In this document: piece after piece, positions 4,996 through 58,801 of the stretch
How positions within the stretch are numbered: position 1 is the first letter of the stretch
Layout of the letters: each line of letters begins with the position of its first letter
NCBI GenBank assembly: GCA_964563795.1
Contig: CAZLYB010000002.1
Coordinates: 190,428 to 254,427 of the forward strand
DNA length: 64,000 nt
From: an uncultured Bacteriovoracaceae bacterium
GTDB taxonomy: Bacteria; Bdellovibrionota; UBA1018
Direction of reading: 5' to 3'
The notes under the pieces: generated by a model
The model's database searches: none
Told to the model about the DNA's origin: nothing
The model's input: the letters and a program-made list of their open reading frames with translations, nothing else
Position numbers and translations under genes: made by a program

Positions 4996-5446
4996 GAGCC
5001 CTCCCGCGGATCTTGGATTGAAGACGAATCAAGCCATGCATGATGGATTCCGGGCGCGGAGGGCAACCGGGAACATGTACATCCACCGGAACGACTTGAT
5101 CCGCTCCCGATAAAACGACGTCAGGCGCATGCTGGGCGAACGGCCCTCCGCTATTTGAGCAAGCTCCGACCGCCATCACGTACTTCGGCGTCAACATCGC
5201 CTCATACAAGGCCCGGAGATGAGGGGCGGCTTTTTGGGATACGGCGCCGCAAACGATGAGCAAATCGGCTTGGCCGGGCGTCTCTTGCGGCAAGCAGCCG
5301 AATCGCTCCAAATCATAGCGACACCCTTGGGCGCTCAGGACTTCATTGGCGCAACAACCCGATTGAGCCGTGATGTACCAAAGCGACTGCGAACGAGCCC
5401 ACTCCAATGCCCGATCGATAGTGGAAAGAAGCAGCGTCCCGCTCAT
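4970..5446 (-). CDS. nuoB: NADH-quinone oxidoreductase subunit B (PSST, N2 cluster)
   Basis: GCCANE, ...VCGAVS..., ACSNSGGPF and VDVHVPGCPPRPE motifs, which are the canonical NuoB Cys ligands. Confidence 0.9.
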   Translation of the reverse strand: MSGTLLLSTIDRALEWARSQSLWYITAQSGCCANEVLSAQGCRYDLERFGCLPQETPGQADLLIVCGAVSQKAAPHLRALYEAMLTPKYVMAVGACSNSGGPFAQHAPDVVLSGADQVVPVDVHVPGCPPRPESIMHGLIRLQSKIRGRARGKHGILA

Positions 5447-5838
5447 TTTTTAATCCCTTTGCTCGATGAAGAATAGGATCGTAGCCAACTTAGATCCCCT
5501 TTCTTCACTGAATAAAGTAGACCCAATCCCGCAAGCATCGCAATCCCTGCGATCAATAATAATCCCGTTTTATCCGGAGCGAGCGGTGCCGTCGCGCAAG
5601 GAATCAAGGCGACGATCATCATGATCAAGATGAGCGCTGAATTCACCGCGAAAAAAAAACGCGGGTTGATCCTCTGGCCCAATTGTGAAGGCGAGATCTG
5701 GGGGAGTTGGGAAGCGGAAATCGATTTTTCGTGATTGCGCGAAAAAAGCTTGGATAAGGCGCGAAGACCCAGGGGGATGCTCAGGGCGAAGATTGCCGCC
5801 CCATAATATATGGAGTAACCGCTCCAGGTGCTCGACAT
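5443..5838 (-). CDS. nuoA: NADH-quinone oxidoreductase subunit A
   Basis: 131-aa three-TM protein and first gene of the nuo block; 4-nt overlap with nuoB. Confidence 0.65.
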   Translation of the reverse strand: MSSTWSGYSIYYGAAIFALSIPLGLRALSKLFSRNHEKSISASQLPQISPSQLGQRINPRFFFAVNSALILIMMIVALIPCATAPLAPDKTGLLLIAGIAMLAGLGLLYSVKKGDLSWLRSYSSSSKGIKK

Positions 5839-5896
5839 TGGATGAGCCCAGGCTACAGAAGTTGAAATTGCGTGTCAAGCTCGGTAGGGTCCCGCG

Positions 5897-8800
5897 GTGG
5901 CCTCAAGTCGGATCGAAGATCTCGTCAAATCAGCCCGCGATTTAAATGAACCCATCCGCGTGAGCGGGGGAAACCTCTCCGCATACTCGCTCTGCGCGGC
6001 GAGGTGGCTTTCGAGCTCCGTGAAATCGGCGCATCATCAGGGATTGATCATCGCCCCGAGCGCTGAGCTCGCACTCCTGCTCGCGGAAGACTGCCGATTT
6101 TTCCTGGGATTGCTGGGTGTGGAAATCGCCGTCCTTGAGTTTCCGACTTGGGAGCAATCCCCGTACAGCCCCATTTCCCCCTCAATTCGGACCCGCCTCT
6201 CGCGCCTATCAACCTTGAGCGCCCTTCATCATGAGGCTCCGGCCTCTCGCCTCATCGTGACGACGATTGAAGCGGCGGCGCAAGCCACCTTGCCCCCGGT
6301 AAAATTTCTTCAAAGCGCGATCACTTTGATCGCGGAAGAATCCATCAAATCGCGCGAGGCTCTTGCGGAGCGGCTCGGAGCGATCGGTTACCAGCGCGTA
6401 GACACTGTTGAGGATCCCGGAACCTTCGCGATTCGGGGAGAAATCATCGATCTTTACCCTCTCGACCGCAAACAGCCGATCAGGATTGAACTCTTTGACG
6501 ATTTGATCGAGAGGATGAGGGAATTCGACCCATCGAGCCAGCGCGCCTCCACGCCCCTCAAGCGCTGCCAGGTTTTTCCCGCTCGTGAAGTCTTGATTCA
6601 CGGCGAAGCCTCCAAGACGCTTCGCGAGAGAATCAAGCTCTTCTCCGATGAAAATGGAATCTCCCGCTCTGTTCGCGATCCTTTGCTTGAATCCATCCAA
6701 AACGGGATTTATCCGGAACAGGCTGACGCGTGGGCCCCTTTCGCCTATGAAAACTCAGCGACGCTTTGGGATCACTTGCCTGAGTCCACCTCGGTTTTTT
6801 GGTATGATGAGCTGGGCTGCGATCAGAACTGGGATCAATTCATCGCCAAGCAAAAGGAGTTCGGTCCTGAAAGGATCATCCCTTCCCCCGAGGCTTTGTT
6901 CCCTTGGAACTCTGAGCGACATTCGTTGGCGCGCTCCAAGACGCGCTTTTATTTTGATCGCCTCGAACTCGCTTCGCTCGAAGAAAAAACGGAAGAGCCC
7001 GAAAATCAGGAAACATCGCCGCGGCTGACCGACCAACATCGAATTTCCATCAAGGGAAATTCCGATCTCATGAATCAGTCCAAGCCCACCTCCAAGACCA
7101 GCGCGCAAAACACCTTGGATTCCCTTCAAGACCGATTCGCGCTGTGGGACCGCCAAGGGTTTGAAGTCCACGTCCTCGCTTCCACGCAAAGCCAGGTGGA
7201 TCGAATCCGATTTCTGCTCCAAGAGCGCGACATGCTCTCCGCTCGCATCTCGGTGTCTCAAGGCCATCTGAACGAAGGGTTCCGCTGGCCCGCCGAAGGC
7301 CAAGTCTTCATCACCGAAAACGAGATTTTCGGCTCCAAGCGCGCCCGGAAAAATCAAAGCGCCACGAAAGATTGGATCGGCCTTCAAGCGCTCAGCGACT
7401 TGGCGCCGGGAGACCGAGTCGTGCACCGCGATCACGGGATCGGTCTTTACCAGGGCTTGGTTCGGTTAAACCTCTCGGGAGCGGCGAGCGATTTTCTGCT
7501 GCTCGAGTACGCGGGCAAGGACAAGCTTTACGTCCCCGTCTATCGGATGAACGTCATCCAAAAATATTCAGGCGGCGAAACCGCCGCCCTGGATCGCTTG
7601 GGCACCCAGCAATTCGCGAAGGCTAAAGAGAAAGCCAAGGACTCCATCAACAAGCTCGCGATCGATCTCGTTCGGCTTTACGCGGAACGCGAAATCCGGC
7701 CGGGAACGAGGTTTTCTCCGCCTGATTCATTGTTCAGCGAATTCGAGGGGAAATTCCCGTTCGATGAAACCCCGGATCAGCTCAAGGCCATTCAAAACGT
7801 GATGGAGGACCTTGAATCAGGAAAAGCCATGGATCGATTGGTCTGCGGCGACGTGGGCTATGGAAAAACAGAAGTGGCCATCCGCGCCGCTTTCAGGGCG
7901 GTTACCGAGGGCAAGCAAGTGGCCGTCCTCGTCCCGACCACGATTCTGGCCTACCAGCATGAGCTCTCCTTCAAATCCAGGCTCAAAGATTATCCGATGG
8001 CCGTTGAATCGGTATCGAGGTTCAAATCCCCCAAGGAGCAAAAGGCGGTGATCGACGCGCTCGCCGCGGGAAAGATCGATATCGTCATCGGAACTCATCG
8101 CCTCCTCTCAAAAGACGTCCGCTTCAAGGATTTGGGCCTAATCGTGATCGATGAGGAGCATCGCTTCGGCGTGGAGCACAAGGAGCGCCTCAAAACGCTC
8201 AAGGTCGACACTCATGTGCTCACCTTGAGCGCAACGCCGATACCCCGGACCTTGCACATGGCGCTTTCCGGGCTCAGGGACATCAGCCTGATTCATACGC
8301 CCCCGGTGGATCGCCTCCCCATTCGGACTTTCGTCTCGAAACTCGATGACGATTTGATCCGGAAATCCATTGAGTTTGAGCTCCAACGGGGCGGGCAGGT
8401 CTTCTACCTTCACAACCGCGTGCAGACGATTTACGAACGCGCCAACCACCTCAAGGAGCTGATTCCCAATGCGCAGCTCTCCGTGGCGCACGGTCAGATG
8501 CCAGAGACCGAACTCGAAAAAGCGATGCTCGAATTCTATGAGCGCCGATCCCAAATCCTGATCTGCACCTCCATCATCGAGTCGGGCCTGGATTTGCCGC
8601 TGGCCAACACCTTGATCGTTGAACGCGCGGACGCATTGGGATTGGCTCAGCTTTATCAAATCCGAGGGCGAGTGGGGCGCGGCGACCGCCGAGCTTACGC
8701 CTATCTGATGATCCCCTCGGAGGGGGCGATCACCGAAGACGCCAAAAAAAGGCTCGAAGTCATCCAAAAATTCGTGGAACTGGGGAGCGGCTTCAGCATC

Positions 8801-9466
8801 GCTTCGCACGACTTGGATTTGCGGGGCGGGGGAGATCTGCTCGGAGCCCAGCAATCTGGGCACATCGCAGCGGTGGGATTTGACCTCTATACGGAGCTTT
8901 TGGAGGAAGCGATTGCGGAACTAAGGACCGAGGAGTCCACCCCGAAACTCAAGGAGCCCGAGATTCAAATTCCATGGCCCGCGTTTTTGTCCGAGGATTA
9001 CGTCCCGGACATCCATCAGCGGCTCTCCCTTTATCGCCGACTCTCCGGGGCGACCGATCAAGCGGAGCTCACCTCCCTTGAAGAAGAACTCCAGGATCGA
9101 TTCGGAAAACTCCCCGAGGAGGCCATGAATCTCCTGGTCTTGATTCGGCTCAAGCAACTTCTCAAAGCGGTTGGCATTGAATCCATGAACGTGGGAAAAG
9201 AAAAGATATCCTTGCTCATCGGGGATCTCCAAGCCGTCGCCGCGTCTGGAACGCCGTCCTCCCACCGTCTCGATCCCGTCAAAGTAGTGGCGCTCGTGAC
9301 CGGGCAACCGCGCCAATATCAACTCACACCCGATTCCAAACTCGTGATTCAGTTTCTACCGTCCGATTCCTCTTCCCCTTCGACGCGCCATATCAGCGAT
9401 TTGCACTTGCAGCTGGAAAGTCTCTTTAAAAAAATTTCCCTCGCTGATAGCCTTAAAGAGATATGA
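5897..9466 (+). CDS. mfd: transcription-repair coupling factor Mfd
   Basis: 1189-aa protein with a UvrB-homology N-terminus, superfamily-2 helicase motifs (GDVGYGKTEVA, DEEHRFGV, SATPIPRTL, QLYQIRGRVGRG) and a TRCF C-terminal domain. Starts with GTG at 5897. Confidence 0.9.
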   Translation: MASSRIEDLVKSARDLNEPIRVSGGNLSAYSLCAARWLSSSVKSAHHQGLIIAPSAELALLLAEDCRFFLGLLGVEIAVLEFPTWEQSPYSPISPSIRTRLSRLSTLSALHHEAPASRLIVTTIEAAAQATLPPVKFLQSAITLIAEESIKSREALAERLGAIGYQRVDTVEDPGTFAIRGEIIDLYPLDRKQPIRIELFDDLIERMREFDPSSQRASTPLKRCQVFPAREVLIHGEASKTLRERIKLFSDENGISRSVRDPLLESIQNGIYPEQADAWAPFAYENSATLWDHLPESTSVFWYDELGCDQNWDQFIAKQKEFGPERIIPSPEALFPWNSERHSLARSKTRFYFDRLELASLEEKTEEPENQETSPRLTDQHRISIKGNSDLMNQSKPTSKTSAQNTLDSLQDRFALWDRQGFEVHVLASTQSQVDRIRFLLQERDMLSARISVSQGHLNEGFRWPAEGQVFITENEIFGSKRARKNQSATKDWIGLQALSDLAPGDRVVHRDHGIGLYQGLVRLNLSGAASDFLLLEYAGKDKLYVPVYRMNVIQKYSGGETAALDRLGTQQFAKAKEKAKDSINKLAIDLVRLYAEREIRPGTRFSPPDSLFSEFEGKFPFDETPDQLKAIQNVMEDLESGKAMDRLVCGDVGYGKTEVAIRAAFRAVTEGKQVAVLVPTTILAYQHELSFKSRLKDYPMAVESVSRFKSPKEQKAVIDALAAGKIDIVIGTHRLLSKDVRFKDLGLIVIDEEHRFGVEHKERLKTLKVDTHVLTLSATPIPRTLHMALSGLRDISLIHTPPVDRLPIRTFVSKLDDDLIRKSIEFELQRGGQVFYLHNRVQTIYERANHLKELIPNAQLSVAHGQMPETELEKAMLEFYERRSQILICTSIIESGLDLPLANTLIVERADALGLAQLYQIRGRVGRGDRRAYAYLMIPSEGAITEDAKKRLEVIQKFVELGSGFSIASHDLDLRGGGDLLGAQQSGHIAAVGFDLYTELLEEAIAELRTEESTPKLKEPEIQIPWPAFLSEDYVPDIHQRLSLYRRLSGATDQAELTSLEEELQDRFGKLPEEAMNLLVLIRLKQLLKAVGIESMNVGKEKISLLIGDLQAVAASGTPSSHRLDPVKVVALVTGQPRQYQLTPDSKLVIQFLPSDSSSPSTRHISDLHLQLESLFKKISLADSLKEI

Positions 9467-10317
9467 AAATTCAAAAAATCCTTGGGATTTCGTTGGGGGT
9501 TCTGGCAAGCGCCGTGAGCGCGAAAGCGGCTAAAGAAGTCGCGCGCGTCAATAATCAAATCATCACGCTCGAGGACTTCGACAAAAAATACCGGGAGAGC
9601 CTCAAATTTTTCCAGAACAACGCCCCGAGCAAGGAAAGCGTCTTGGACGACATGATCAAGCGCGAGACCGCCGTCCAAAAAGCGAAGGAAAAAGGCTTGG
9701 ACCGCGATCCCGAGATTCAAGACCGCATCAAGACGGTCCTCTATCATGCGTTGATCGAGAAAGAACTCACCCGCGAATTCGAGAAAATTCAGATCTCCGA
9801 TGATGAAGCGAAGGCGAATTACTCGAAAAACCCCGAGATTCGAACGAGCCACATCTTCCTTTCCGTGAAGCCGGGGGCGGGCCAGGACGAAGACCGCAAG
9901 ACGCTTGAGAAGCTCAAGACGATTCAAAACGATTATCTCAAGGACGGCAAGACGAGTTTCGCCGAAGTGGCCCAGAGATTCTCGGAAGGCGTGGCGGCCC
10001 CATTCGGCGGGGACATCGATTTTCAAACACGCGATAAGCTCGATCCTGCTTATTACAGCGCCGCTCTTCAGTTGAAGAGCCCGGGCAAGATCAGCGGAAT
10101 CGTCCGCTCCAAGCACGGCTACCACATCATCAAGCTCACGGCCGTGAAGTCCTGGGCCGAAGCCGATCATGCCGAATGGAAGAGAAAACTGTTTGATGAG
10201 AGGCGCTCCCAGATTTTCGACCGCTGGATCGCCCAGTACGTCAAATCAGCGCGCGTGAGCAAGAACCTCGCGTTAGTCCAGGACTCGAAGCCCTCCGCCC
10301 CGGCGGCCGGGCCCTAG
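9463..10317 (+). CDS. secreted parvulin-type peptidyl-prolyl cis-trans isomerase (PpiC/PrsA-like)
   Basis: N-terminal signal peptide (MKIQKILGISLGVLASAVSA) and a PpiC-type rotamase domain (TSHIFLSV...GGDIDFQTRDKL...KHGYHIIKL). ATGA overlap with the mfd stop. Confidence 0.7.
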   Translation: MKIQKILGISLGVLASAVSAKAAKEVARVNNQIITLEDFDKKYRESLKFFQNNAPSKESVLDDMIKRETAVQKAKEKGLDRDPEIQDRIKTVLYHALIEKELTREFEKIQISDDEAKANYSKNPEIRTSHIFLSVKPGAGQDEDRKTLEKLKTIQNDYLKDGKTSFAEVAQRFSEGVAAPFGGDIDFQTRDKLDPAYYSAALQLKSPGKISGIVRSKHGYHIIKLTAVKSWAEADHAEWKRKLFDERRSQIFDRWIAQYVKSARVSKNLALVQDSKPSAPAAGP

Positions 10318-31355: not shown

Positions 31356-32465
31356 CTAAATGCGCATCGGCATGATGACGTAGGTGTGGTTGGCGTGTCC
31401 CACCCCTTTTAAAACGCCAGGGCTGAGCCGATCTTTCAGTTGAAGCTCCAGCACTTCCGTATTCATCACCGCCAAGCAATCGAGCAAGTAGCGCGAATTG
31501 AAACCGATCTCCAGAGGCTCCCCGGAGTAATCCAAATCCAACTCCTCATTGGCATCCCCCATATCCGGGTTGCTGGAGGAGAGAGAGAGGGAACCCGCTT
31601 GGAGGGAGAGTTTCACACCCCGGCTTTTTTCATGAGCGAGCAAGCTCACTCGCTTCAACGCCGCGTTCAGCTCTTCTCGGTTCATCTTGAAGGAAGGGTG
31701 CACTTCTTTCGGGATGACCATTCGGTAGTCCGGATATTCACCCTCGATCAGTCGGATGAAAAGGTGCTCCTCACCCAAGCGAGCGAATAGGTGACCCCGT
31801 TCAAAAGAAAGACCAATGGAGGCTCCCGCTTCAGGAAGCAGCTTTCGAAGCTCCATCAGGCCTTTTTTAGGGATGATCACACCGCGCTTGAGATCCGGGG
31901 CTCCTAAAAAAACCTCTTGATCGACGAACGAAAGGCGATGGCCATCCGTCGCGGTCATCCTCATCACGTTGTTCTCGAGATGCTCAAAGTAAACGCCGTT
32001 CAAGTGATACCGGGTTGCATCGGTTGAAACCGCGAATTGAGTGCGGTCAATCATGTCGATGAGCGCTTCGGTCCGGGTCTCGAGATATTGCTTTGAGGCG
32101 AAATCAGGGAGAGCAGGGTATTCCTCGGCGGGTAAGCTCACGATGTTGAATCGCGACTTTCCGCAGAGAAGCTCGACCCATTGGTTTTCTTTTTGGGAGA
32201 GCTTGATTTCTTTTTCCGGGAGCTCGCGGACGATATCGAGAAAATTCTTAGCGGCGAGGGTCGTTTTTCCGGGCTGAGTTCCTTGAGCCGGAATTGAGAG
32301 CTGGATTCCCACTTCCAAATCTGTGGTGCTAAGGGAAAGGCGATCGCGCTCTACGACGCAGAGGATGTTTCCTAAAATCGGGATCGTGTTTTTTTTCTCG
32401 ACTACGGATTGGACTTTTTGAAGGGCTTCAAGAAGAGGAGCTCTTTGAATCGTGAAGTTCATCAA
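31356..32465 (-). CDS. dnaN: DNA polymerase III beta sliding clamp
   Basis: 369-aa protein of three-domain beta-clamp size. N-terminus MMNFTIQRAPLLEALQKVQSVVEKKNTIPILGNILC is typical. recF lies downstream. Confidence 0.9.
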   Translation of the reverse strand: MMNFTIQRAPLLEALQKVQSVVEKKNTIPILGNILCVVERDRLSLSTTDLEVGIQLSIPAQGTQPGKTTLAAKNFLDIVRELPEKEIKLSQKENQWVELLCGKSRFNIVSLPAEEYPALPDFASKQYLETRTEALIDMIDRTQFAVSTDATRYHLNGVYFEHLENNVMRMTATDGHRLSFVDQEVFLGAPDLKRGVIIPKKGLMELRKLLPEAGASIGLSFERGHLFARLGEEHLFIRLIEGEYPDYRMVIPKEVHPSFKMNREELNAALKRVSLLAHEKSRGVKLSLQAGSLSLSSSNPDMGDANEELDLDYSGEPLEIGFNSRYLLDCLAVMNTEVLELQLKDRLSPGVLKGVGHANHTYVIMPMRI

Positions 32466-32689: not shown

Positions 32690-33150
32690 TAGTAGAGCGT
32701 GTGGATATGTGGATAAGTGGGTTAAGTTTTCAGAGTTGCAGGAAAAACTATGTGGACAACCGTGGGGATAACTTTGGGGATAAAGCCGATGAATTTGTGG
32801 ATAACTTTCAAAAGCAGTGAAGTTTCGAGTTATCCACAGAGTTATCCCCATTCTTTTGTGGATAACTTTTTTAGCCATTTGTTTTAGTCTGATGAAGATC
32901 AAAGAAACGGTAGATCTAAGTGTTTTTTTAAGAGTTATCCCCAAAAACTGAGTTTTTCATTTTTAATTAAAACTCCAAAAACACTGACTACTCAGTGTGG
33001 ATATGTGGATAAGTTTGCAACTTAATGGAATCAAGGCTGAAAAAATTAAAATGATGGGGATAAGTATGGGGATAACTTGTGGATAGCGATGGGGATAAAA
33101 AACTTATCCACAAGTTATCCCCATACTTATCCACAGAGTTATCCCCAAAA
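32690..33150. other. oriC: chromosomal replication origin (oriC): DnaA-box cluster with AT-rich unwinding element
   Basis: Seven perfect TTATCCACA/TGTGGATAA boxes (starting at 32708, 32797, 32830, 32858, 33005, 33105, 33128) and at least 12 single-mismatch boxes (TGGGGATAA, TTATCCCCA, TGTGGATAT, TGTGGATAG) in both orientations within about 450 bp. AT-rich tracts at 32941-32990 and 33030-33055. Directly upstream of dnaN. Confidence 0.8.
33055..33147. repeat. tightly packed DnaA-box array (8 boxes in 93 bp, alternating orientation)
   Basis: tggggataa(33055) tggggataa(33068) tgtggatag(33079) tggggataa(33090) ttatccaca(33105) ttatcccca(33116) ttatccaca(33128) ttatcccca(33139), with 11-13 bp spacing. 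Confidence 0.8.
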
Positions 33151-41243: not shown

Positions 41244-42644
41244 TTATTTCCCAATGCAAAACCCCGTAAAAATCCGCGTGAGCAGGTCATCGGCCAAAGT
41301 GACACCAATGATGGGACCTAGCGAATGAAGCGCCTGGCGCAGATCCGCCGCTAGAAATGCTGGCTCCTGAGCCAGGCGAGCGCGGTTGAGGTGTTCCAGT
41401 GCCTCACGAACGGCACGTAGGTGGTCCAAGCGAGTGAGGAGCACTTCTTGAGGGGAGCGGTGAATTTTCGCTTCGCAAAGCGAGACCAGCTGTTCAACCG
41501 TTTCTCTAAGGCCCTGGCCGTTTTGAGTGGAAGTGGCGATCCACTGCCGAATTCCTCTGAAGGAGGTTGGAGTAGGCGCAGTCCCCACTAGATCGAGCTT
41601 CGTGAAAATCCCAAGGGCCTCCGGCGGATGGGGAGTGCCGCTTAGGATCGAATTCCATGACGCCTCAATCTCCATCAGCTGCTTGGACGAGCTTGAGGCT
41701 TCGACAAGCAAGAGCACCAAATCCGCTTTTCTCGCTGCGGCCGTGGCGCGCTGAATTCCCTCACGTTCAATGGGATCGAGCGAGGCGCGGAGTCCTGCCG
41801 TATCTTCGAGGTTCAAGGTGATGCTGCTGGATTTTCCACGAAGCGTGATCCGCTCCCGCACGAGGTCGCGCGTGGTACCGGCGATTTCAGAGACGATGGA
41901 GCGGTTCTCGCCCAGGATCGCGTTGAAGAAGCTCGATTTTCCGACGTTGGGAAGACCGATGAGCGCGATCCTGAACCCTTCTTGGAGCCGGGTACCCCGG
42001 TCAAAACTGTTTTCGAGGCGCTCCAGCGTCCCGATGAGCGGCGGAATTTTCCGGATCAACCGACTGAGGCTCACTTCATCGATGTCCTGATCCGAGAAAT
42101 CAATCCCCAGTTCCGCAAGCGCGGCGAGCTGCCGGAGCTCCTCGGCGAGCTCCGAGAACAAGCGTTGCTGCGTGCCCGAAAGTTTCTCGAGCGCGAGCGC
42201 GAGCGCTCCATCGTTGCTCGCGGAAATCACTTCCGAGACGGCCTGAGCCTGTGAGAGCGTGAGGCGCCCGTTCCTCACCGCGCGAAAACTGAATTCCCCC
42301 GGCAGCGCCTGGCGCGCGCCGAGTGAGACGATCGCCTCAAGAACCCGCTCCGCAACGAAACTCCCGCCATGCAGGAAATATTCGACGCAGTCTTCGCCCG
42401 TGTAACTGCGTGGCGCATCGAAGCGCGCCGCGAGCGCATCATCAAGCAGCGCGTCCGTGGAAGGGTTTCGAAGCAGCACGCGAGTCATGGAGCGCGGTTG
42501 GAATTTGCTCAAATCAGGAACACGCGAAAGTTTGAGCAATGTTTCGTGCGCCCGCGGGCCGCTCACGCGCAGTATCGAAAGGGCACCACCGGTCGCCGCG
42601 GCGATCGCCGCGATCGTGTCTTCGGCGAAATAATCAGCGGACAT
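41244..42644 (-). CDS. mnmE: tRNA modification GTPase MnmE
   Basis: 466-aa protein with a G domain (GLPNVGKSSFFNAILG, DTAGLR, TKLD) and the diagnostic C-terminal CIGK. Confidence 0.9.
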   Translation of the reverse strand: MSADYFAEDTIAAIAAATGGALSILRVSGPRAHETLLKLSRVPDLSKFQPRSMTRVLLRNPSTDALLDDALAARFDAPRSYTGEDCVEYFLHGGSFVAERVLEAIVSLGARQALPGEFSFRAVRNGRLTLSQAQAVSEVISASNDGALALALEKLSGTQQRLFSELAEELRQLAALAELGIDFSDQDIDEVSLSRLIRKIPPLIGTLERLENSFDRGTRLQEGFRIALIGLPNVGKSSFFNAILGENRSIVSEIAGTTRDLVRERITLRGKSSSITLNLEDTAGLRASLDPIEREGIQRATAAARKADLVLLLVEASSSSKQLMEIEASWNSILSGTPHPPEALGIFTKLDLVGTAPTPTSFRGIRQWIATSTQNGQGLRETVEQLVSLCEAKIHRSPQEVLLTRLDHLRAVREALEHLNRARLAQEPAFLAADLRQALHSLGPIIGVTLADDLLTRIFTGFCIGK

Positions 42645-42661: not shown

Positions 42662-44302
42662 TCAGCGGGCCTGAACCACCACGTTCGTGTTCACGCGAGG
42701 TTTGAGATCGAGCTTCTTATTGAGGTAGAGCTGCTGCGCGATGCTCGCGATCGCGTTGACCAGCATGTAGAGCGTGAGGCCCGAAGGCAATGAGATCATG
42801 AGCAGGCCGAAGAACACCGGCATGAACTGCATCATCTTTTGCTGAGCGGGATCCGCGGCCGGAGTCGGCGAAAGTTTTTGCTGAAGGTACATCGTCACGG
42901 TCAGGAGGATCGGGGTGACGTAAAAAGGATCGTGGCTTGAGAGGTCCTTGATCCAGAAGATGAAAGGCGCGTGATACAGCTCGATCGAGCTGTAGAGCAC
43001 CCGGTAGAGCGCGAAGAACACCGGCATCTGAATCAGGATCGGCAAGCAACCCGACATGGGGTTGTAGCCATGGCTCCGCATCAGTGACAGCATTTCTCGG
43101 TTGAGCGCCTCTTTATTGTCTTTGTATTTTTCGCGGAGCTTCTGAAGTTGAGGCTGGATGCGAGCCATTTCCTTCATGCTCTTCATGCTCTTGTAAGTCA
43201 GCGGATAGGTGATGAGCTTGATAAAGAGCGTGAGGACGATGACGGACCATCCGTAGTTTCCGATGAACAAATAGAGCCACTTCAAAAGCTTCAAAATCGG
43301 ATAGGCCACCAAAGTAAACCAACCCAAATCAATTGTATGATCCAAGAGAGGATCGACGGCGCGAAGGGCGTGGAGCTCCTTGGGTCCGAAGTAAGCTTTC
43401 AGGGGAATCGAAATCGAAGTCCCTGCTCCCGGAGCTGCGGTGATCGGATAGACCAAACTCAAGCGACCCGCCTTGGGCCCGGCGGATTGCAGAAGTCCCC
43501 GTGGTTCGGAGCCTTCGCCGGCGAGAACGCTCATGAGAAAGTAGCGGTTCGTCGCCCCGATGTATTTGACGTTGGTGGCGATCGGCGTGAGATCAACCTC
43601 TTTTTCCACGGTGTGGCGCTCCAGTTTGGACGCACTCCAATAGATCAGCTGCCGATCCGCCGCTTCGGGGTCTTTTTCCAAAATACTTTTTGAATAAAGG
43701 GAGACGAACGCGTGAGCGGGGGCTTGCGCCTTGAATTGGGCGTCGATGCGGATTTGAACCGAAAGCTGATCCGGCGCGGGGGTGAAAAGCCGGGTGAGCT
43801 TTACTTTCGCATCCTCATAACTCCAGAGCACGCCTTGTGGAGTTGAAGAGAGTTGGCCTTTGACTTCATTGAGGTAGCTGTATTGGGCATCATCGAATGC
43901 GAGCTCGATTTCGCCATTTTCATGGGTGACCGAGGAAAGGTCCACTCGCGCGGCATTCGCATTGATGTTGAGTTTGTAGCTTTTCAGCTCCCACCCAACG
44001 AAAAAGCGATGGCCGCTGCCGATTTTCGCTTCACCGGTCCCTGTGGAAAGCGGGAGAAAGTCGGGGCCAGCATTTCCACGCAGAGCCGCGGAAGGCGGAG
44101 TTTTTTGGAGGGTCGCAGGGGCGAGCGCTTGGGTGGGGGAAGAGGGAGGGTTCGGCGAGGTCGACTGGGTCGTTACGGCGACCGGCGCAGATTTGCCGGG
44201 TTCGAGATAATACTTTTGCCAAGCGACGAAGATGGCAAAACTCAAAGCAAAAGCGATTACGGTTTTACGATCCATTCGAGAGTTCCTTTGGAACAGGGTC
44301 AA
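42662..44302 (-). CDS. yidC: membrane protein insertase YidC
   Basis: 546-aa protein with an N-terminal TM, a large periplasmic domain and a C-terminal five-TM core ([29 protein letters not shown]..., [16 protein letters not shown]). Confidence 0.9.
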
Positions 44303-51760: not shown

Positions 51761-51837
51761 GCGGGTGTAGCTCAGTTGGCTAGAGTGCGAGCTTCCCAAG
51801 CTTGAGGTCGAGGGTTCGAGCCCCTTCACCCGCTCCA
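51761..51837 (+). tRNA. tRNA-Gly (anticodon CCC)
   Basis: Hand-folded cloverleaf: acceptor GCGGGTG/CACCCGC, D-arm GCTC..GAGT, anticodon stem CGAGC/GCTTG with loop TTCCCAA (anticodon CCC), T-arm GAGGG TTCGAGC CCCTT, discriminator T, encoded CCA. Confidence 0.85.
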
Positions 51838-53274: not shown

Positions 53275-55152
53275 ATGAATTTTGACGTTTTAGTGATTGG
53301 GGGAGGTCATGCGGGCTGCGAAGCGGCTCATGCCGCCGCTCGCCTTGGCTGTTCCACAGCGCTCGCCACTTTGAACCCGGACCGGATTGGATTTCTCTCG
53401 TGCAATCCCGCGATGGGAGGACTTGCGAAAGGTCAGCTCGTCAAAGAAATCGACGCTTTAGGCGGGGTGATGGGAAGGATCACTGACCGCGCGGCGATTC
53501 AATATCGGCGGTTGAATTCAAGTAAGGGGCCAGCGGTTCGGTCTTCACGAGCTCAATGCGACAAAGCCCGCTATTCGAACGAGATGAAATCGTTTTTGAA
53601 ACAGGTTCCTCGCTTGGAATTTTTGCCAGTTGAAATTACTGAGATCTTGGTCGAAGGCGGTAGGGTTGCCGGAGCCATTACTGCAGAAAGGACCCGGATC
53701 GAAGCTAAAACAGTAGTAATTACATCAGGTACTTTTTTGAGAGCAATCATGCACACGGGGTCAGATCAACTCGAGGGAGGAAGATTAGGGGATTCTTCCG
53801 CCAAGGGTTTGAGTCAATCTCTCGAGCGAATGGGTTTTCGGTTGAGACGGCTTAAAACAGGGACTCCGCCTCGACTTCACCGTGAAAGCATTGATTGGAC
53901 GCGCGTTGCCCCTCAAGACGGAGATTTAAATCCTCTCCCTTTTTCATTTTATCACCGACCTCATCCCTTTCCTTATCTCCCCCAGATTCAGTGTTTTATC
54001 ACTTATACGAACGAGCGGACCCATGAGGTGATTGAACAGAACTTTGCTCGCTCCCCTTTGTTTACTGGGATCATTCAGGGAGTTGGACCTCGGTATTGCC
54101 CTTCAATCGAAGACAAAGTGAAGCGTTTTCGCGACAAGACGCGTCATCAGCTTTTTTTAGAGCCAGAGGGATTGGAAACTCCAGAGATCTACGTAAATGG
54201 AATTTCAACGAGCCTCCCGCGTGATGTTCAAGACGCATTTGTGCGCACCATCGAGGGGCTGGAAAACGCTGTTTTTATGAAGCACGGGTATGCCGTGGAG
54301 TATGACAGCGTTGATGCACGGCAATTGAAGCGCACTTTGGAATCAAAAGAAATCCCTGGTTTATTTTTCGCGGGCCAAGTCAACGGAACTTCGGGCTACG
54401 AAGAAGCTGGTGCCCAAGGGTTGATGGCTGGGATTAACGCCGCTCTTGTTGTTCAAGAGCGTGATTCTTTTACTTTAGGAAGACATGAAGGGTACATCGG
54501 CGTTCTAGTGGATGACCTCGTTTTAAACGGAGTGGATGAGCCCTATCGTATGTTCACTTCGCGCGCTGAGTATCGGCTTTTGCTCCGTGAAGATAACGCA
54601 GATCTTCGCCTCGGTGAAAAAGCGGGAAAACTAGGGCTTTTGTCGCCCTTAGAACAAGAGCGGTTGCAGTTTAAAGCACAAGCGATTCAAGAAGAGCGAG
54701 AGCGACTGGAGTCCACTTTCTTTTTCCCCGTTCAAACCGCCGAATACTTTGAGTCGCGGCAGTGGCCCCTCCTGAAAGATCGAATTTCTGCTTCGACGCT
54801 CTTAAGACGTCCTGAGGTAGGATGGGCAGAATTAGAAGCACTGGGTCTGAAGAGATTTGAGGGGAGTGATTCAAAAGAACTTGCCTTTGAAATCAAGGAG
54901 CAAGTTGAGATCCAAATCAAGTATGAGGGGTATATCAAGAGGGATCTCGAGCTCCTTAAAACCGTAAACCAGTATGAAAACTTAGAAATCCCTCACGACA
55001 TTGATTATGGGGTGATCCCAGGACTTTCAAATGAAATAAAGGGAAGGCTTTCGGATACAAAACCTGAAACCCTTGGGCAAGCAAAGCGAGTCCCAGGAGT
55101 TACGCCAGCCGCAGTAGCGAATCTCATGATTTTTCTCAAGATGTCAGCATGA
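53275..55152 (+). CDS. mnmG: tRNA uridine 5-carboxymethylaminomethyl modification enzyme MnmG (GidA)
   Basis: 625-aa protein with the FAD-binding N-terminus FDVLVIGGGHAGCEAA and conserved GidA core (NPAMGG, GPRYCPSIEDK), plus the C-terminal MnmE-interaction domain. Confidence 0.95.
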   Translation: MNFDVLVIGGGHAGCEAAHAAARLGCSTALATLNPDRIGFLSCNPAMGGLAKGQLVKEIDALGGVMGRITDRAAIQYRRLNSSKGPAVRSSRAQCDKARYSNEMKSFLKQVPRLEFLPVEITEILVEGGRVAGAITAERTRIEAKTVVITSGTFLRAIMHTGSDQLEGGRLGDSSAKGLSQSLERMGFRLRRLKTGTPPRLHRESIDWTRVAPQDGDLNPLPFSFYHRPHPFPYLPQIQCFITYTNERTHEVIEQNFARSPLFTGIIQGVGPRYCPSIEDKVKRFRDKTRHQLFLEPEGLETPEIYVNGISTSLPRDVQDAFVRTIEGLENAVFMKHGYAVEYDSVDARQLKRTLESKEIPGLFFAGQVNGTSGYEEAGAQGLMAGINAALVVQERDSFTLGRHEGYIGVLVDDLVLNGVDEPYRMFTSRAEYRLLLREDNADLRLGEKAGKLGLLSPLEQERLQFKAQAIQEERERLESTFFFPVQTAEYFESRQWPLLKDRISASTLLRRPEVGWAELEALGLKRFEGSDSKELAFEIKEQVEIQIKYEGYIKRDLELLKTVNQYENLEIPHDIDYGVIPGLSNEIKGRLSDTKPETLGQAKRVPGVTPAAVANLMIFLKMSA

Positions 55153-55799
55153 ACCTCTTAGACCAAGAACTTAAAGCGGTTGGAATCGAGCTTTCAAGCG
55201 AAGCTGAGCAGAAACTCACGCGTTTTTATGAACTCCTTAAGGAAGAGAATAAAAAACAAAACCTCACTCGCTTAATCGAGCCCAGAGATTTTATAGAAGG
55301 GCATGTTTACGACGCTTGGAAGCTGCATCACTCTGGATTTCTCCATTCTCCTTCACTTGATTTAGGAAGTGGGGCAGGGAGTCCTGGCCTGATCTGCGCA
55401 CTCTTTAATCCCCAGCATCAGTGGGTGCTTACTGATTCAGAAAAAAGAAAGGCTGCTTTTTTAATCCAGGCTCAGAAGCAGCTCCAACTCGAGAATTGCC
55501 AAGTATTCGCAGATCGTGCAGAGAGGCTTCTTAAAAGCAAACCCGTTCCCTGTATTACGGTGCGTGCAGTAGGAACAGTTTCTAAAATTTTTGCGCTTCT
55601 GAGCACATGTTCTACGTGGAACACACTCCTTTTACTCAAAGGCCCTCGATGGCAAGAAGAATGGACTGAATTTCAGGGCGGCTCCTTTCGTTCGCAATTA
55701 AAAATCGAGGCCGTTCAAAACTACGAAGTAGGAATTGAAAGAAAAAAACGACTACTCATCAACCTAAAAAGAGTTCCACGTGGAACAAAAAGGGAATGA
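55149..55799 (+). CDS. rsmG: 16S rRNA (guanine527-N7)-methyltransferase RsmG (GidB)
   Basis: 216-aa protein with SAM motif LDLGSGAGSPGL. 4-nt overlap with mnmG, the classic gidA-gidB pair. Confidence 0.85.
   Translation: MNLLDQELKAVGIELSSEAEQKLTRFYELLKEENKKQNLTRLIEPRDFIEGHVYDAWKLHHSGFLHSPSLDLGSGAGSPGLICALFNPQHQWVLTDSEKRKAAFLIQAQKQLQLENCQVFADRAERLLKSKPVPCITVRAVGTVSKIFALLSTCSTWNTLLLLKGPRWQEEWTEFQGGSFRSQLKIEAVQNYEVGIERKKRLLINLKRVPRGTKRE
55608..55623. promoter_or_regulatory. parS-like palindrome (3 mismatches to TGTTTCACGTGAAACA)
   Basis: tgttctacgtggaaca inside the 3' half of rsmG; shares the core with the stronger site at 55772. Confidence 0.35.
55772..55787. promoter_or_regulatory. parS-like perfect 14-bp palindrome GTTCCACGTGGAAC
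   Basis: agttccacgtggaaca is a perfect inverted repeat around CACGTG and has a 13/16 match to the universal parS consensus. It lies in the last codons of rsmG, about 200 bp upstream of parA, a typical parS location. Confidence 0.5.
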
Positions 55800-55939
55800 G
55801 TATTCAAAAATATTTATTAAAAACATCTTGCACCGGCGGTGATTCATGGCTAACCTGAAAGAGTAGTCGAAATTGATGATTCAAAAAAAGTTTCTTCTGA
55901 TGAAAAGGTTATTCGCACCAACCACAAACCACAGACCTC

Positions 55940-55970
55940 GGGGCGCCGTAACTGGCGCCCCTTCTGGTTT
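55940..55970 (+). terminator. Rho-independent terminator after rsmG
   Basis: ggggcgcc-gtaact-ggcgcccc, an 8-bp GC stem, followed by ttctggtttt. Confidence 0.6.
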
Positions 55971-55991
55971 TCAGGGGATAAGGGGAATCCA

Positions 55992-56846
55992 GTGGGCAAA
56001 GTGATTTCTGTTGCGAACCAAAAGGGTGGAGTGGGTAAGACCACCACCACGATTAATTTAGCCGCCTCTCTGGCGCTTGCTGAGAGAAAAACATTGGTCA
56101 TCGATTTTGATCCTCAAGGAAATGCGACGTCAGCATTGGGAATCGATCGAGCTTCAATCGAACCTGGCAAAACCATTTATCACGCTCTCATTGGGCATAC
56201 GCCAATGCCTGAAGTGATTCGACCAACCGAGATGGATTGCTTGTTCATCGCACCCGCAACGGGCGATTTGACCGGCGCTGAGATTGAGCTGGTAAGCGCT
56301 TTTTCGCGAGAAATGAAGCTCAAAACGGCGCTTCAAGAAATTCGTAAACAGTATGACTATATTTTGATTGATAGCCCGCCGTCGCTGGGATTGCTGACGG
56401 TGAATGCGCTGACGGCCGCGGATAGTTTTTTGGTGCCGCTCCAGTGTGAATATTTCGCTCTTGAAGGTCTGAGTCAGCTTTTGAAAACCGTCTCGCTCAT
56501 TCGACAAAGCACGAATCCCCAGCTCGCTGAAGAGGGGATTGTGCTCACGATGTTTGATGGGAGAAACAACTTGGCGAATGAAGTCGTCAAGGAAGTTCGC
56601 ACCCATTTCAGCCAGCAAGTGTTTGAGACAGTCGTTCCGCGGAACGTGCGATTGAGCGAATGCTCAAGCTTCGGCAAGCCCATCCTGCTTTATGACATTG
56701 ATTCAAAGGGCTGCCTGGCTTATTTGAACCTCGCGAAGGAAGTCCTGGCACGAAATCAACCCGAGCAGGGTTTAGCGGTTTCAGCCGGATTGAATCATTC
56801 GTCGCAGCCGGGTCCGGAGCTAGGAATGGCTCAAGTCAGTAATTAA
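55992..56846 (+). CDS. parA: chromosome partitioning ATPase ParA (Soj)
   Basis: GTG start. Deviant Walker A KGGVGKTTT, ParA/MinD fold (DFDPQGNAT, ILIDSPPSLG). Confidence 0.9.
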   Translation: MGKVISVANQKGGVGKTTTTINLAASLALAERKTLVIDFDPQGNATSALGIDRASIEPGKTIYHALIGHTPMPEVIRPTEMDCLFIAPATGDLTGAEIELVSAFSREMKLKTALQEIRKQYDYILIDSPPSLGLLTVNALTAADSFLVPLQCEYFALEGLSQLLKTVSLIRQSTNPQLAEEGIVLTMFDGRNNLANEVVKEVRTHFSQQVFETVVPRNVRLSECSSFGKPILLYDIDSKGCLAYLNLAKEVLARNQPEQGLAVSAGLNHSSQPGPELGMAQVSN

Positions 56847-56855
56847 ATATTATTT

Positions 56856-57833
56856 ATGGAAAATTCCTCACCTCAAAAAGGAGCGAAAGTGGCGCAAAAA
56901 CCCGTTCTCGGAAAAGGATTGGCTTCGCTGCTCCCGTCGGGCCCGCCCTCGGGGGCGATCGCCGCTGGGCTCGCCGTCCCTGCGAGCGCGGTCGTCGAGG
57001 ATAATCGCGATCGCCACCCTGGGATCAGTTTAGCCGCGGTTGAGGAGATCGAGGAGAATCCGTATCAGCCTCGCCATCAATTCAATGACCAAGCAATCGA
57101 TGAGCTTTCGCAGTCGATCCGCGAAAATGGCATCATTCAGCCATTGGTTGTGAGAAAGCGCGCGCAAGGCGGCTACCAGTTGATCGCCGGAGAGCGCCGC
57201 TTAAGAGCCGCCAAAAAAGCGGGTCTCAAGCAAGTGCCCGTGGTGATTCGCAAGTCCACGGATAAGGAAGCGCTCGAATTGGCGTTGATCGAAAATATTC
57301 AACGACAGGATTTGAATTGCATCGACGTGGCGCTCGCCTATTCGCAGCTGATGCAGGATTTTTCGCTGACTCAGGAATTAGTAGCCACGCGCGTGGGCAA
57401 GGATCGAGCGACCGTCGCGAACCATCTTCGCCTATTAAAATTGCCGGACGCGATTCAAGATGATTTAAAAAAACAGATCCTCAGTTTTGGCCACGGCAAA
57501 GCGCTATTGTCCCTTGAAGATCAGGACCAGAGGCTGCAAGTCAGGGCTAGGATCGTCGAAAAGAAGCTCAGCGTCCGCGATGCGGAGGCGCTCATCGAGG
57601 AAATCAAGCAGTCTCAAAACCGTGCTGGGAGCGGTTCTTCAGCCGCTTCAGAGCCGGAATCCACCCTTCCGCCAGTCACTCGCTTGGGAGCCGCATCTCA
57701 GGATTTAACACGCTATTGGGCGACAAAAGTTGAAATTCGAGGAACGGAGCGGCGCGGCAAAATCGTGCTTCACTATGGATCTCGCCAAGAGCTTGATCGA
57801 ATCCTGGAATTGATGCAAAATCAAAAGAGATGA
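56856..57833 (+). CDS. parB: chromosome partitioning protein ParB (Spo0J)
   Basis: ParB box GERRLRAAK, HTH region and a C-terminal dimerisation domain; directly downstream of parA. Confidence 0.9.
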   Translation: MENSSPQKGAKVAQKPVLGKGLASLLPSGPPSGAIAAGLAVPASAVVEDNRDRHPGISLAAVEEIEENPYQPRHQFNDQAIDELSQSIRENGIIQPLVVRKRAQGGYQLIAGERRLRAAKKAGLKQVPVVIRKSTDKEALELALIENIQRQDLNCIDVALAYSQLMQDFSLTQELVATRVGKDRATVANHLRLLKLPDAIQDDLKKQILSFGHGKALLSLEDQDQRLQVRARIVEKKLSVRDAEALIEEIKQSQNRAGSGSSAASEPESTLPPVTRLGAASQDLTRYWATKVEIRGTERRGKIVLHYGSRQELDRILELMQNQKR

Positions 57834-58237
57834 AGCAGCGTCCCGTCGTACTTAGTGCTCCTGCGTCCTCGCCTCAAGTCACAGGGGTGATTGAGCAGGG
57901 GTGCGAATTTGAAGGTAAGCTTTGCTTTCAGGGGACTCTCCGAATTGGGGGGGTATTCCGGGGGCAGATTTACACGCCAGACACTTTGATCATTGGGGAA
58001 GGCGCCCGAGTTCACGCTGAGATCGAAGCAGGGACCGTAATCATCAGCGGCGAAGTCAATGGGACGATCGTAGCTAAAAACCGGGTTGAAATCCATAAAC
58101 CCGCTGTTTTTCGAGGCGATATCCTGACACCCAGCCTCAGCGTTGATGAAGGCGTCATTTTCGACGGCCGCAGCAAAATGGGGCAGATTCAAGCGGCTCC
58201 GCAGCGCTCCTACCTGATTTCCCAGCAAAAGCCCTAA
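57830..58237 (+). CDS. bactofilin (polymer-forming cytoskeletal protein)
   Basis: 135-aa protein with beta-helical bactofilin/DUF583 repeat pattern (LCFQGTLRIGGVFRGQIYTPDTLIIGEGARVHAEIEAGTVIISGEVNGTIVAKNRVEIHKPAVFRGDILTPSLSVDEGVIFDG). ATGA overlap with the parB stop. Confidence 0.8.
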   Translation: MKQRPVVLSAPASSPQVTGVIEQGCEFEGKLCFQGTLRIGGVFRGQIYTPDTLIIGEGARVHAEIEAGTVIISGEVNGTIVAKNRVEIHKPAVFRGDILTPSLSVDEGVIFDGRSKMGQIQAAPQRSYLISQQKP

Positions 58238-58357
58238 AATCAGTTTCATCTTCTTCTAAAGAAGCCGAATTGCGCATGATGCGCTTGACCTCTCGCAATC
58301 GCCCATGTTAGCTCACTCAAGCAATCTGATCGGTTAAAGAGGAGCGACGGTCGTCAC

Positions 58358-58801
58358 GTGAATGGCCTATTGGACCAGCTTGGCCTGGATTCTACATTTT
58401 TTATTGAGTTTTTCCTGTTCGTTTTCCTGTTCTTGATTTTGGGAAGGCTTTACTTCCGCCCATTCCAAAAACTTTTTCATGAACGCCATCAAAAGACGGC
58501 GGAAGACCGAAAAACGGCTGAGAAATGGATGCTCGAAGCTCAAAACAAGCTGGATGAGTATCAAAGGCGCCTCCAGCAGGAGCGCGCGGACGCCCAGAAG
58601 CATTTGGAAGAGGCGCTCATGACGGCGAAGCAGAAAGAAAATGAGATCCTGGCTCACGCTCGTGATGAGGCGAAACGCGTGACTCAAGAAGCCCTTGAAA
58701 ACGTGGCAGCGCAAAAAGAGCAACTGAAAAAGCAGCTCGAAATCGAAGTGGAGAGCATGGCTCGACAGATTTCAGAGCGACTCGTTTCCAGGAAAGTCTA
58801 A
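58358..58801 (+). CDS. atpF2: F0F1 ATP synthase subunit b' (b-type, copy 1)
   Basis: GTG start. Single N-terminal TM then a long charged coiled coil (AEDRKTAEKWMLEAQNKLDEYQRRLQQERADAQK), first of two tandem b-like genes. Confidence 0.6.
   Translation: MNGLLDQLGLDSTFFIEFFLFVFLFLILGRLYFRPFQKLFHERHQKTAEDRKTAEKWMLEAQNKLDEYQRRLQQERADAQKHLEEALMTAKQKENEILAHARDEAKRVTQEALENVAAQKEQLKKQLEIEVESMARQISERLVSRKV

Follow-up and report, generated by a model that had tools for sequence, protein, structure and literature searches.

A bactofilin gene that begins inside the stop codon of the chromosome partitioning gene parB raises the question of whether the bactofilin serves the ParABS machinery as an anchor of the replication origin, or only shares an inherited gene order with it. 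We analysed this locus in a 64-kb stretch of DNA (the window) from an uncultured Bdellovibrionota bacterium. According to the open reading frame list and the raw sequence, parA, parB and the bactofilin gene follow one another in the same orientation on the + strand (Table 1), and the coordinates bear out the original prediction that the three are tightly packed as one unit. All three gene products were canonical by Pfam. Downstream of the bactofilin gene, atpF'/F, atpH, atpA, atpG and atpD were assigned from the open reading frame list and Pfam. A known RNA family in the window was also considered and dropped, as an Rfam search at the gathering threshold returned a single match, a tRNA. Overall, the locus is very probably a Bdellovibrionota form of the parA-parB-bactofilin unit, which is known and conserved.

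Table 1. Positions in the window of the parA-parB-bactofilin locus and of related features.
Feature	Position	Strand	Details
dnaN	31356-32465	-	Adjoins oriC-like cluster
oriC-like cluster	32700-33147		~20 DnaA boxes (TTATCCACA / TTATCCCCA)
dnaA	45130-46644		
tRNA	51761-51834		Single Rfam match
parS-like site	55608-55623		TGTTCTACGTGGAACA; 3' part of gidB, 191 nt before its stop
parS site	55772-55787		AGTTCCACGTGGAACA; 27 nt before gidB stop; perfect 14-bp palindrome GTTCCACGTGGAAC
Leader motif	55909-55929	+	Degenerate DnaA-box-like 9-mer TTATTCGCA, then CCAACCACAAAC
GC-rich hairpin	55940-55961	+	GGGGCGCC-gtaact-GGCGCCCC, then TTCTGGTTTT; ends 30 nt before parA start
parA Shine-Dalgarno	55980-55986		AAGGGGA
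parA	55992-56846	+	Soj-type partition ATPase, 284 aa, GTG start
parB	56856-57833	+	325 aa; Pfam
ATGA junction	57830-57833	+	4-nt overlap, bactofilin start / parB stop
Bactofilin gene	57830-58237	+	135 aa; Pfam, PDB sequence match, predicted fold
Spacer, bactofilin gene to atpF'	58238-58357	+	120 nt
atpF'	58358-58801		Start of ATP synthase operon beyond the spacer

The position of the operon relative to the origin was assessed from DnaA boxes and GC skew. With at most one mismatch, 23 DnaA boxes were matched in the window compared to 6.4 expected, and 20 of them fell within one 450-bp stretch. The GC skew switched from negative to positive at ~30-32 kb, where the cluster sits, and dnaN, recF and gyrB were recognised by Pfam. 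The operon had been described as lying next to oriC, which is roughly right: the DnaA-box cluster and the skew switch lie ~23 kb upstream of parA.

We then characterised the partition proteins and their sites. ParA matched the Pfam family AAA_31 (3e-64) and also CbiA and MipZ, its translation contains the deviant Walker A motif NQKGGVGKTT, and its identity to ParA of Bdellovibrionota relatives (loci L001-L036) was 64-81%. ParB matched ParB_N (8e-36), HTH_ParB (1e-34) and ParB_C (2e-6); the translation and the Pfam matches revealed an N-terminal LGKGLASL motif (ParA contact), the CTP-binding motif GERRLRA, the HTH and a C-terminal dimerisation domain. Two parS positions precede the gidB stop codon, and both are kept in relatives. 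The upstream site is one substitution off the palindrome GTTCCACGTGGAAC, which the relatives have in perfect form at the same position. The core of the downstream site is identical to that of the experimentally used Bdellovibrio bacteriovorus parS, TGTTCCACGTGGAACA (PMC10547168). The domains and motifs of ParA and ParB, the nearby parS sites and the origin-proximal position identify a chromosomal ParABS system.

At the parB/bactofilin junction, AAAAGAGATGAAGCAG, the bactofilin ATG (57830-57832) overlaps the parB TGA (57831-57833), and the bactofilin gene does start inside the parB stop codon, as originally predicted. When this junction was compared across 34 loci, the two genes overlapped (-1 to -49 nt) in 22; another 11 loci had 2-18 nt between them, and in one (L004) they stood 43 nt apart. 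In 33 of the 34 loci, then, the genes either overlapped or were separated by no more than 18 nt, and ATGA was the commonest junction class among relatives (9/34). No terminator-like hairpin was found between parB and the bactofilin gene, and no correctly spaced Shine-Dalgarno sequence precedes the bactofilin ATG. Because the ATG lacks this element, co-transcription of the three genes and coupling of bactofilin translation to parB by termination and reinitiation is the natural reading of the sequence. The three genes are most likely carried on one transcript begun upstream of parA, and ribosomes ending on parB would most likely reinitiate at the overlapping ATG; the timing of bactofilin production, and roughly its level, would then follow those of ParB. 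On the 3' side, the + strand of the spacer before atpF' contained no convincing intrinsic terminator (fold z-score +0.39).

An independent bactofilin transcription unit, driven by its own promoter from within parB and overlapping at ATGA only through incidental genome compaction, appears quite improbable. Independent initiation would be possible in those relatives that combine a gap with a good Shine-Dalgarno sequence, as in L036, where a short gap holds GGGGGAG, or that have a wider gap, as in L004, and it is in keeping with this reading that the + strand scan gave zero sigma-70-like promoter candidates anywhere in the operon. However, the same scan found no promoter-like site within parB on the + strand, overlaps of 1-49 nt prevail among the loci (22/34), and RT-PCR has demonstrated co-transcription in both model organisms, B. 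bacteriovorus (PMC7186360) and Myxococcus xanthus (PMC3899335).

We surveyed the neighbours of parB in related genomes. parB was found directly 5' of the bactofilin gene in 36/36 related loci. The whole order gidA-gidB-parA-parB-bactofilin-atp (atpF'FHA) was likewise present in all 36 informative species-level relatives, defined as related loci with enough flank (L038 was too short and was left out). Because the linkage is kept in every one of these loci, the arrangement is not due to chance. A match in a Solibacter locus (L039) was discarded as a spurious weak match inside other ORFs. More distant homologues were examined through representative clusters and genomic context look-ups. The parB-bactofilin linkage also occurred beside a 59%-identical bactofilin on an ENA contig and in a Bdellovibrionales MAG, whose syntenic bactofilin was 57% identical (P0125). 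Additionally, an Anaeromyxobacteraceae (Myxococcota) genome showed the context gidB-parA-parB-bactofilin-atp with a bactofilin of 50% identity (P0137 cluster) and a parB-bactofilin gap of 164 nt without overlap, and this shared synteny indicates common descent of the arrangement. Non-syntenic bactofilin homologues of other lineages reached 55% and 47% identity; since these are similarly close, identity alone does not define a clade. The functionally unrelated gidAB and atp genes are kept in the same block, so the conserved order is weak evidence of shared function.

The bactofilin itself was examined at the level of sequence and predicted structure. It matched Pfam Bactofilin PF04519 (DUF583) at 8e-28, scoring 97 bits where the curated cut-off is 27.9, over residues 20-115 and profile positions 2-97 of 98. 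PDB sequence matches were obtained with 6RIA (1.6e-10) and 2N3D (2.7e-9). The AF2 model showed an all-beta core at residues ~19-117 (pLDDT >90) flanked by tails at 1-14 and 121-135 (pLDDT <50), and Foldseek aligned this predicted structure to 6RIB at an rmsd of 1.2 A (TM 0.93) and to 2N3D at 1.4 A. The protein is a canonical short bactofilin, with a predicted beta-helical core and two short tails modelled as disordered, and by homology it should form non-polar scaffold filaments without nucleotide. The polymerisation-interface Phe is F111 (GVIFDGRS), which aligns with GAFFQGRS of BacA and is invariant in both homologue alignments; the counterparts of this hydrophobic head/tail interface residue are F130 in BacA and F105 in TtBac. 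The start codon is supported by 17 aligned homologues, all of which start within 1-3 residues of the same position. The N terminus reads MKQRPVVLSAPASS, against a clade consensus of MSR..DLSVPAT. The membrane-targeting consensus of bactofilins is MFSKK(K) or MFSKKKK (PMC12448750), and a canonical N-terminal peptide of this MFSKK type is absent from both the window protein and the clade consensus; membrane-bound scaffolding is therefore not assured. The C-terminal tail, of ~15-18 residues, is not a long tail of the BacP type.

We compared the locus with known systems. In B. bacteriovorus HD100, parA3 (bd3906), parB (bd3905) and the bactofilin gene bd3904 are co-transcribed by RT-PCR (PMC7186360), and the same gene map is given in PMC10547168. 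The two loci share the phylum, the gene order, gidB upstream, an origin-proximal place and two upstream parS sites with the common core GTTCCACGTGGAAC; between gidB and parA, B. bacteriovorus carries an additional ORF (bd3907), where the window contains 192 nt of non-coding DNA. In M. xanthus, parA (MXAN_7477), parB (MXAN_7476), bacM (MXAN_7475) and MXAN_7474 are co-transcribed (PMC3899335), with bacM directly 3' of parAB (PMC5703909). This unit likewise has a short bactofilin near oriC, at ~35 kb compared to ~23 kb here, but a lipoprotein gene follows the bactofilin gene instead of the atp operon. BacM is described as N-terminally processed and as having a role in cell shape. On the basis of synteny, and of 50-57% identity to bactofilins from these two phyla, the window bactofilin is a putative counterpart of BacM and Bd3904. 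With C. crescentus BacA and the T. thermophilus bactofilin it shares the domain, a predicted beta-helical fold (rmsd 1.2-1.4 A) and, for BacA, the terminal interface Phe (VIFDG aligning with AFFQG), while its N-terminal tail departs from the MFSKK(K) of canonical membrane-binding bactofilins. The BacNOP-PadC system of M. xanthus also contains bactofilins, and there the polymer is functionally tied to ParA and ParB, which makes it the mechanistic template for the origin positioning originally proposed. It lies at a separate locus and comprises three co-polymerising paralogues, the ParB-like adaptor PadC, and BacP with its long C-terminal tail. In the window a single short bactofilin is encoded, and a tblastn search of the 64 kb with ParA, ParB and bactofilin (E <= 1) found neither a second bactofilin nor a PadC-like ParB paralogue.

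These comparisons correct two points of the original prediction. That the Myxococcus genes occupy separate loci is true of bacNOP-padC alone and not of bacM, which is directly downstream of parAB (PMC5703909) and co-transcribed with it (PMC3899335). Nor is a parAB-bactofilin operon new, having been published for M. xanthus (PMC3899335, PMC5703909) and B. bacteriovorus (PMC7186360). The parA-parB-bactofilin operon is real, conserved and already known in Bdellovibrionota and Myxococcota. With earlier descriptions from Myxococcus and Bdellovibrio, and with conservation among their relatives, it counts as an ordinary feature of the lineage. What the present analysis adds is that dozens of uncultured species keep the linkage together with a very close and frequently overlapping junction, and that the same gene block reaches into Myxococcota. 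This comparative conservation strengthens the case for work on Bd3904 function in a tractable predator.

What the bactofilin does within this unit can be weighed from the same evidence. According to one reading, it is a BacM-like morphogenetic scaffold for shape or wall growth, and its link to parAB reflects an inherited old gene order together with convenient cell-cycle-phased co-expression. Most characterised bactofilins act in morphogenesis (PMC12448750), the Anaeromyxobacteraceae synteny fits such an inheritance, and BacM, which holds the same position in Myxococcus, maintains cell shape and does not position ParAB. The missing membrane-targeting peptide argues against this reading, as does the lack of a peptidoglycan enzyme gene (e.g. 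M23 peptidase) adjoining the bactofilin gene in the open reading frame list and Pfam matches, and the tight parB junction exceeds the needs of mere co-location. We give this reading slightly less than an even chance. It is also possible, though somewhat doubtful, that the locus is an origin-positioning module, in which the bactofilin polymer would anchor ParB-parS and/or ParA at a pole or in a subpolar position, with the parB coupling setting the stoichiometry of anchor to cargo. The conserved, often overlapping junction over 34 loci speaks for it, as do the closeness of the operon to its parS sites and to oriC (23 kb), and the positioning of ParABS by BacNOP-PadC in M. xanthus (PMC5703909). 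A ParB-anchoring role for the B. bacteriovorus bactofilin has already been suggested (PMC7186360; reviews), the reviews proposing a polarity or origin-anchoring role as a hypothesis. Against this stands BacM, the sole syntenic bactofilin tested, which was without effect on ParA/ParB localisation (PMC5703909) and is not required for segregation. Furthermore, BacP bound neither ParB nor ParA directly in vitro and needed the adaptor PadC, and the window offers no such adaptor, second bactofilin or BacP-like tail; the gidAB/atp synteny is equally conserved, so linkage need not mean interaction.

By our estimate for the role of the protein, a morphogenetic or cell-envelope function like that of BacM comes close to an even chance, a polar or origin/ParABS anchor has a smaller but substantial share, and the rest falls to other functions. 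Should the bactofilin prove to anchor the origin, this would close a recognised gap, that of polarity and origin anchoring in non-binary dividing predators; reviews have identified no PopZ- or HubP-type polar hub in the Bdellovibrionota lineage. The fuller proposal is unlikely: that the parB-coupled bactofilin is the missing origin/ParB anchor, made in fixed proportion to ParB, and that the operon is also switched by DnaA through a leader motif and hairpin. If true, such a leader would link replication initiation directly to making the segregation machine and its anchor.

The leader itself was a separate observation. The non-coding gidB-parA spacer contains a conserved motif followed by a hairpin, and DnaA boxes are enriched upstream of parA. 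The motif has the consensus TTATCCACA-CCAACCACAACC in relatives, and its core CAACCAC does not vary among the 18 relatives aligned. The motif is missing upstream of parA in three more distant loci (L040, L043 and L046), and it is therefore clade-specific. A small ORF in the spacer, which in the window is 46 codons long and runs over the parA start, was rejected; its frame across the motif is not kept, 1-nt indels breaking it in L005 and L014. Three roles are conceivable for the hairpin: stem-loop within the leader, attenuator, or terminator of gidB. Its stems differ wholesale among species and were not aligned by MAFFT; a strong hairpin of differing sequence is found at this position in each of the 21 loci that carry the motif, including the window.

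In the ORF list and in the raw sequence, all genes of the window from gidA to the atp genes run in the same direction. The bactofilin gene had been proposed to start inside the parB stop codon, and the raw sequence carries exactly this ATGA overlap at 57830-57833: the ATG lies within ...GAGATGAAG..., and its final two bases open the parB TGA. No correctly spaced Shine-Dalgarno sequence precedes this ATG (AAAGAG abuts it), and no terminator-like hairpin was found between the two genes of the window. Given these features, the natural reading is that parB and the bactofilin gene would be co-transcribed and coupled through termination-reinitiation.

Features of the window, with strand and supporting evidence where available
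Feature	Position	Strand	Details
ORF, ~500 aa	10331-11845	-	
ORF, ~500 aa	21734-23269	+	
dnaN	31356-32465	-	
oriC-like array	32700-33147		~20 DnaA boxes
ORF, 350 aa	33207-34259	-	
ORF, 376 aa	34389-35519	+	
mnmE	41244-42644		
yidC	42662-44302		
dnaA	45130-46644		
tRNA gene	51761-51834		
ORF, 421 aa	51938-53203	-	
gidA/mnmG	53275-55152	+	ORF list, raw sequence
gidB/rsmG	55149-55799	+	ORF list, raw sequence
parS, second copy	55608-55623		one substitution
parS	55772-55787		perfect core at 55773-55786
Conserved leader element	55909-55961		non-coding
Leader hairpin	55940-55961		GC-rich
parA	55992-56846	+	GTG start, AAGGGGA ahead; Pfam AAA_31, 3e-64
parB	56856-57833	+	Pfam ParB_N, HTH_ParB, ParB_C
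Bactofilin gene, 135 codons	57830-58237	+	Pfam PF04519
ATP synthase genes atpF', F, H, A, G, D	from 58358 onward	+	ORF list

We scanned relatives at one genome per species and found 39 loci, 37 of which were true relatives (47-78% identity), all from MAGs of uncultured Bdellovibrionota that carry the labels Bacteriovoracaceae, Oligoflexia or Bdellovibrionia. Searches by tblastn with the proteins of the window recovered the order gidA-gidB-parA-parB-bactofilin-atpF'-F-H-A in essentially every locus, with parB directly 5' of the bactofilin gene in all loci having upstream sequence (36/36). The distance from the parB stop to the alignment-supported bactofilin start was then surveyed in 34 loci including the window: the genes overlapped by 1 to 49 nt in 22 (nine through ATGA, six by 22 nt), were separated by 2-18 nt in 11, and by 43 nt in one. 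The parA-parB-bactofilin arrangement is thus real and non-random. In locus L002, an insertion of about 4 kb (5391-9629) separates the bactofilin gene from atpF', and no other locus has that junction broken. In a Bdellovibrionales MAG (L046, 3082-4013), parB was called as two ORFs, ParB_N alone and then HTH plus ParB_C; this could mean that the gene is frameshifted or a pseudogene, or that the assembly is wrong there.

An exhaustive profile-free search returned 13,343 bactofilin cluster representatives, and gene context was inspected for some of the nearest clusters. The order was parA-parB-bactofilin-atp on an ENA contig (P0123, 59% identity), gidAB-parA-parB-bactofilin-atp in a Bdellovibrionales MAG (P0125, 57%) and yidC-jag-gidB-parA-parB-bactofilin-(hsp20)-atpHAGD in an Anaeromyxobacteraceae genome of the Myxococcota (P0280, 50%). 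The bactofilin gene lay away from parB in a Chloroflexota representative (P0276, 55%) and in P0143 (47%); in the P0294 cluster (50%) it adjoins atp at a contig edge that cuts off the upstream part. These look-ups show that the parAB-bactofilin block occurs in at least one genome of the Myxococcota as well as in Bdellovibrionota, and that linkage to parB is not universal among bactofilins.

The 135-codon product matched PF04519 at 97 bits (cut-off 27.9), and in the PDB it matched the solved bactofilin structures 6RIA (Thermus thermophilus, 1.6e-10) and 2N3D (Caulobacter, 2.7e-9). Its AlphaFold model had pLDDT >90 in the core (residues ~19-117) with both tails disordered, and Foldseek superposed it on 6RIB (rmsd 1.2 A, TM 0.93) and 2N3D (rmsd 1.4 A). 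The starts of all 17 aligned homologues fall within 1-3 residues of the ATG of the window, confirming the start codon. In the alignments, F111 corresponds to the Phe that is conserved at the polymerisation interface. Comparison of the N terminus with the consensus revealed no canonical MFSKK-type membrane-targeting peptide. The tails (N-terminal MSR..DLSVPAT, C-terminal RSFL) are particular to the clade and are not kept in more distant parB-linked homologues.

The favoured and very probable reading is a conserved parA-parB-bactofilin operon in which translation of the third gene is coupled to that of parB and its product is a scaffold that forms polymers. The arrangement itself is already known. 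In B. bacteriovorus, parA3 (bd3906), parB (bd3905) and the bactofilin gene bd3904 are co-transcribed by RT-PCR (Milner et al. 2020, PMC7186360), and Kaljevic et al. 2023 (PMC10547168) drew an identical gene map. The original prediction also held that the Myxococcus genes occupy separate loci, which is correct for bacNOP-padC only, whereas in M. xanthus bacM directly follows parAB (Lin et al., PMC5703909) and is co-transcribed with parA, parB and MXAN_7474 (Iniesta 2014, PMC3899335). That prediction was partly right, on the operon, coupling and origin proximity, and wrong on novelty, as both arrangement and hypothesis were in the literature; its functional claim stays a proposal.

Two cellular clients were weighed for this scaffold. 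A BacM-like morphogenetic role is a tentative assignment, falling just short of an even chance: bacM deletion leaves ParA and ParB localisation unchanged in M. xanthus (Lin et al., PMC5703909), and chromosome segregation does not need BacM according to Koch 2011, in the form cited in PMC3899335. Anchoring of the origin or of ParABS is possible but rather doubtful. Milner et al. 2020 (PMC7186360) suggested that bactofilin might restrain ParB in B. bacteriovorus much as in Myxococcus, and two reviews list that bactofilin as a candidate for polarity or origin anchoring. M. xanthus BacP did not bind ParA or ParB directly, and neither a PadC-like ParB paralogue nor a second bactofilin was present in the 64-kb window. 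Conserved order by itself says little about function in this block, since gidAB and atp keep their places too; the tight junction does argue for co-expression with ParB.

The perfect parS core (GTTCCACGTGGAAC) lies 27 nt ahead of the gidB stop, and its sequence is the parS used experimentally with B. bacteriovorus ParB (PMC10547168). Relatives carry two parS-like sites at the same two positions. Both sites are part of the 3' coding end of gidB, and most relatives keep their positions, so the centromere overlaps the coding sequence of a housekeeping gene. The oriC-like array alternates TTATCCACA and TTATCCCCA within an AT-rich spacer of 450 bp where the GC skew changes sign, directly upstream of dnaN-recF-gyrB-gyrA (- strand); DnaA-box matches numbered 23 across the window versus 6.4 expected. 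This position puts about 23 kb between oriC and parA, which lies on the right replichore and is transcribed with replication. The dnaA gene, on the other strand, is about 12 kb away from dnaN and the array and diverges from yidC and mnmE; no DnaA-box cluster was found upstream of it. At E <= 0.001, Pfam matched neither of the two ORFs (350 and 376 aa) that immediately flank the array on the side facing away from dnaN.

Between gidB and parA, the 192-nt spacer holds a conserved element, found at the same position in loci L001-L035, that is non-coding because its reading frame is not kept. Its motif is shared by 20 relatives (consensus TTGA-TTATCCACA-CCAACCACAACC), its core CAACCAC does not vary across the 18 relatives aligned, and the motif was absent upstream of parA in more distant lineages. 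A strong GC-rich hairpin follows 5-15 nt after the motif, constant in position and wholly different in sequence between species, and ends 1-109 nt (mostly <20 nt) ahead of the parA start. The element had no Rfam match; it may serve the par operon as a 5' leader or attenuator, encode a small RNA, or be the terminator of gidB preceded by a conserved box. It may also be a control region that responds to DnaA. In several relatives the first 9-mer matches the DnaA box perfectly. Of 32 loci, 11 have DnaA boxes with at most one mismatch ahead of parA, always on the + strand, and their density there is 1.7 per kb versus 0.2 per kb background. The 9-mer of the window itself is degenerate (TTATTCGCA).

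Among other ORFs, the two of about 500 aa had no Pfam match at E <= 1e-5; the plus-strand one sits in a lower-GC stretch (~0.49 versus ~0.56 around). The 421-aa ORF, divergent from gidA, has a signal-peptide-like N terminus and only weak WD40/beta-propeller Pfam matches.
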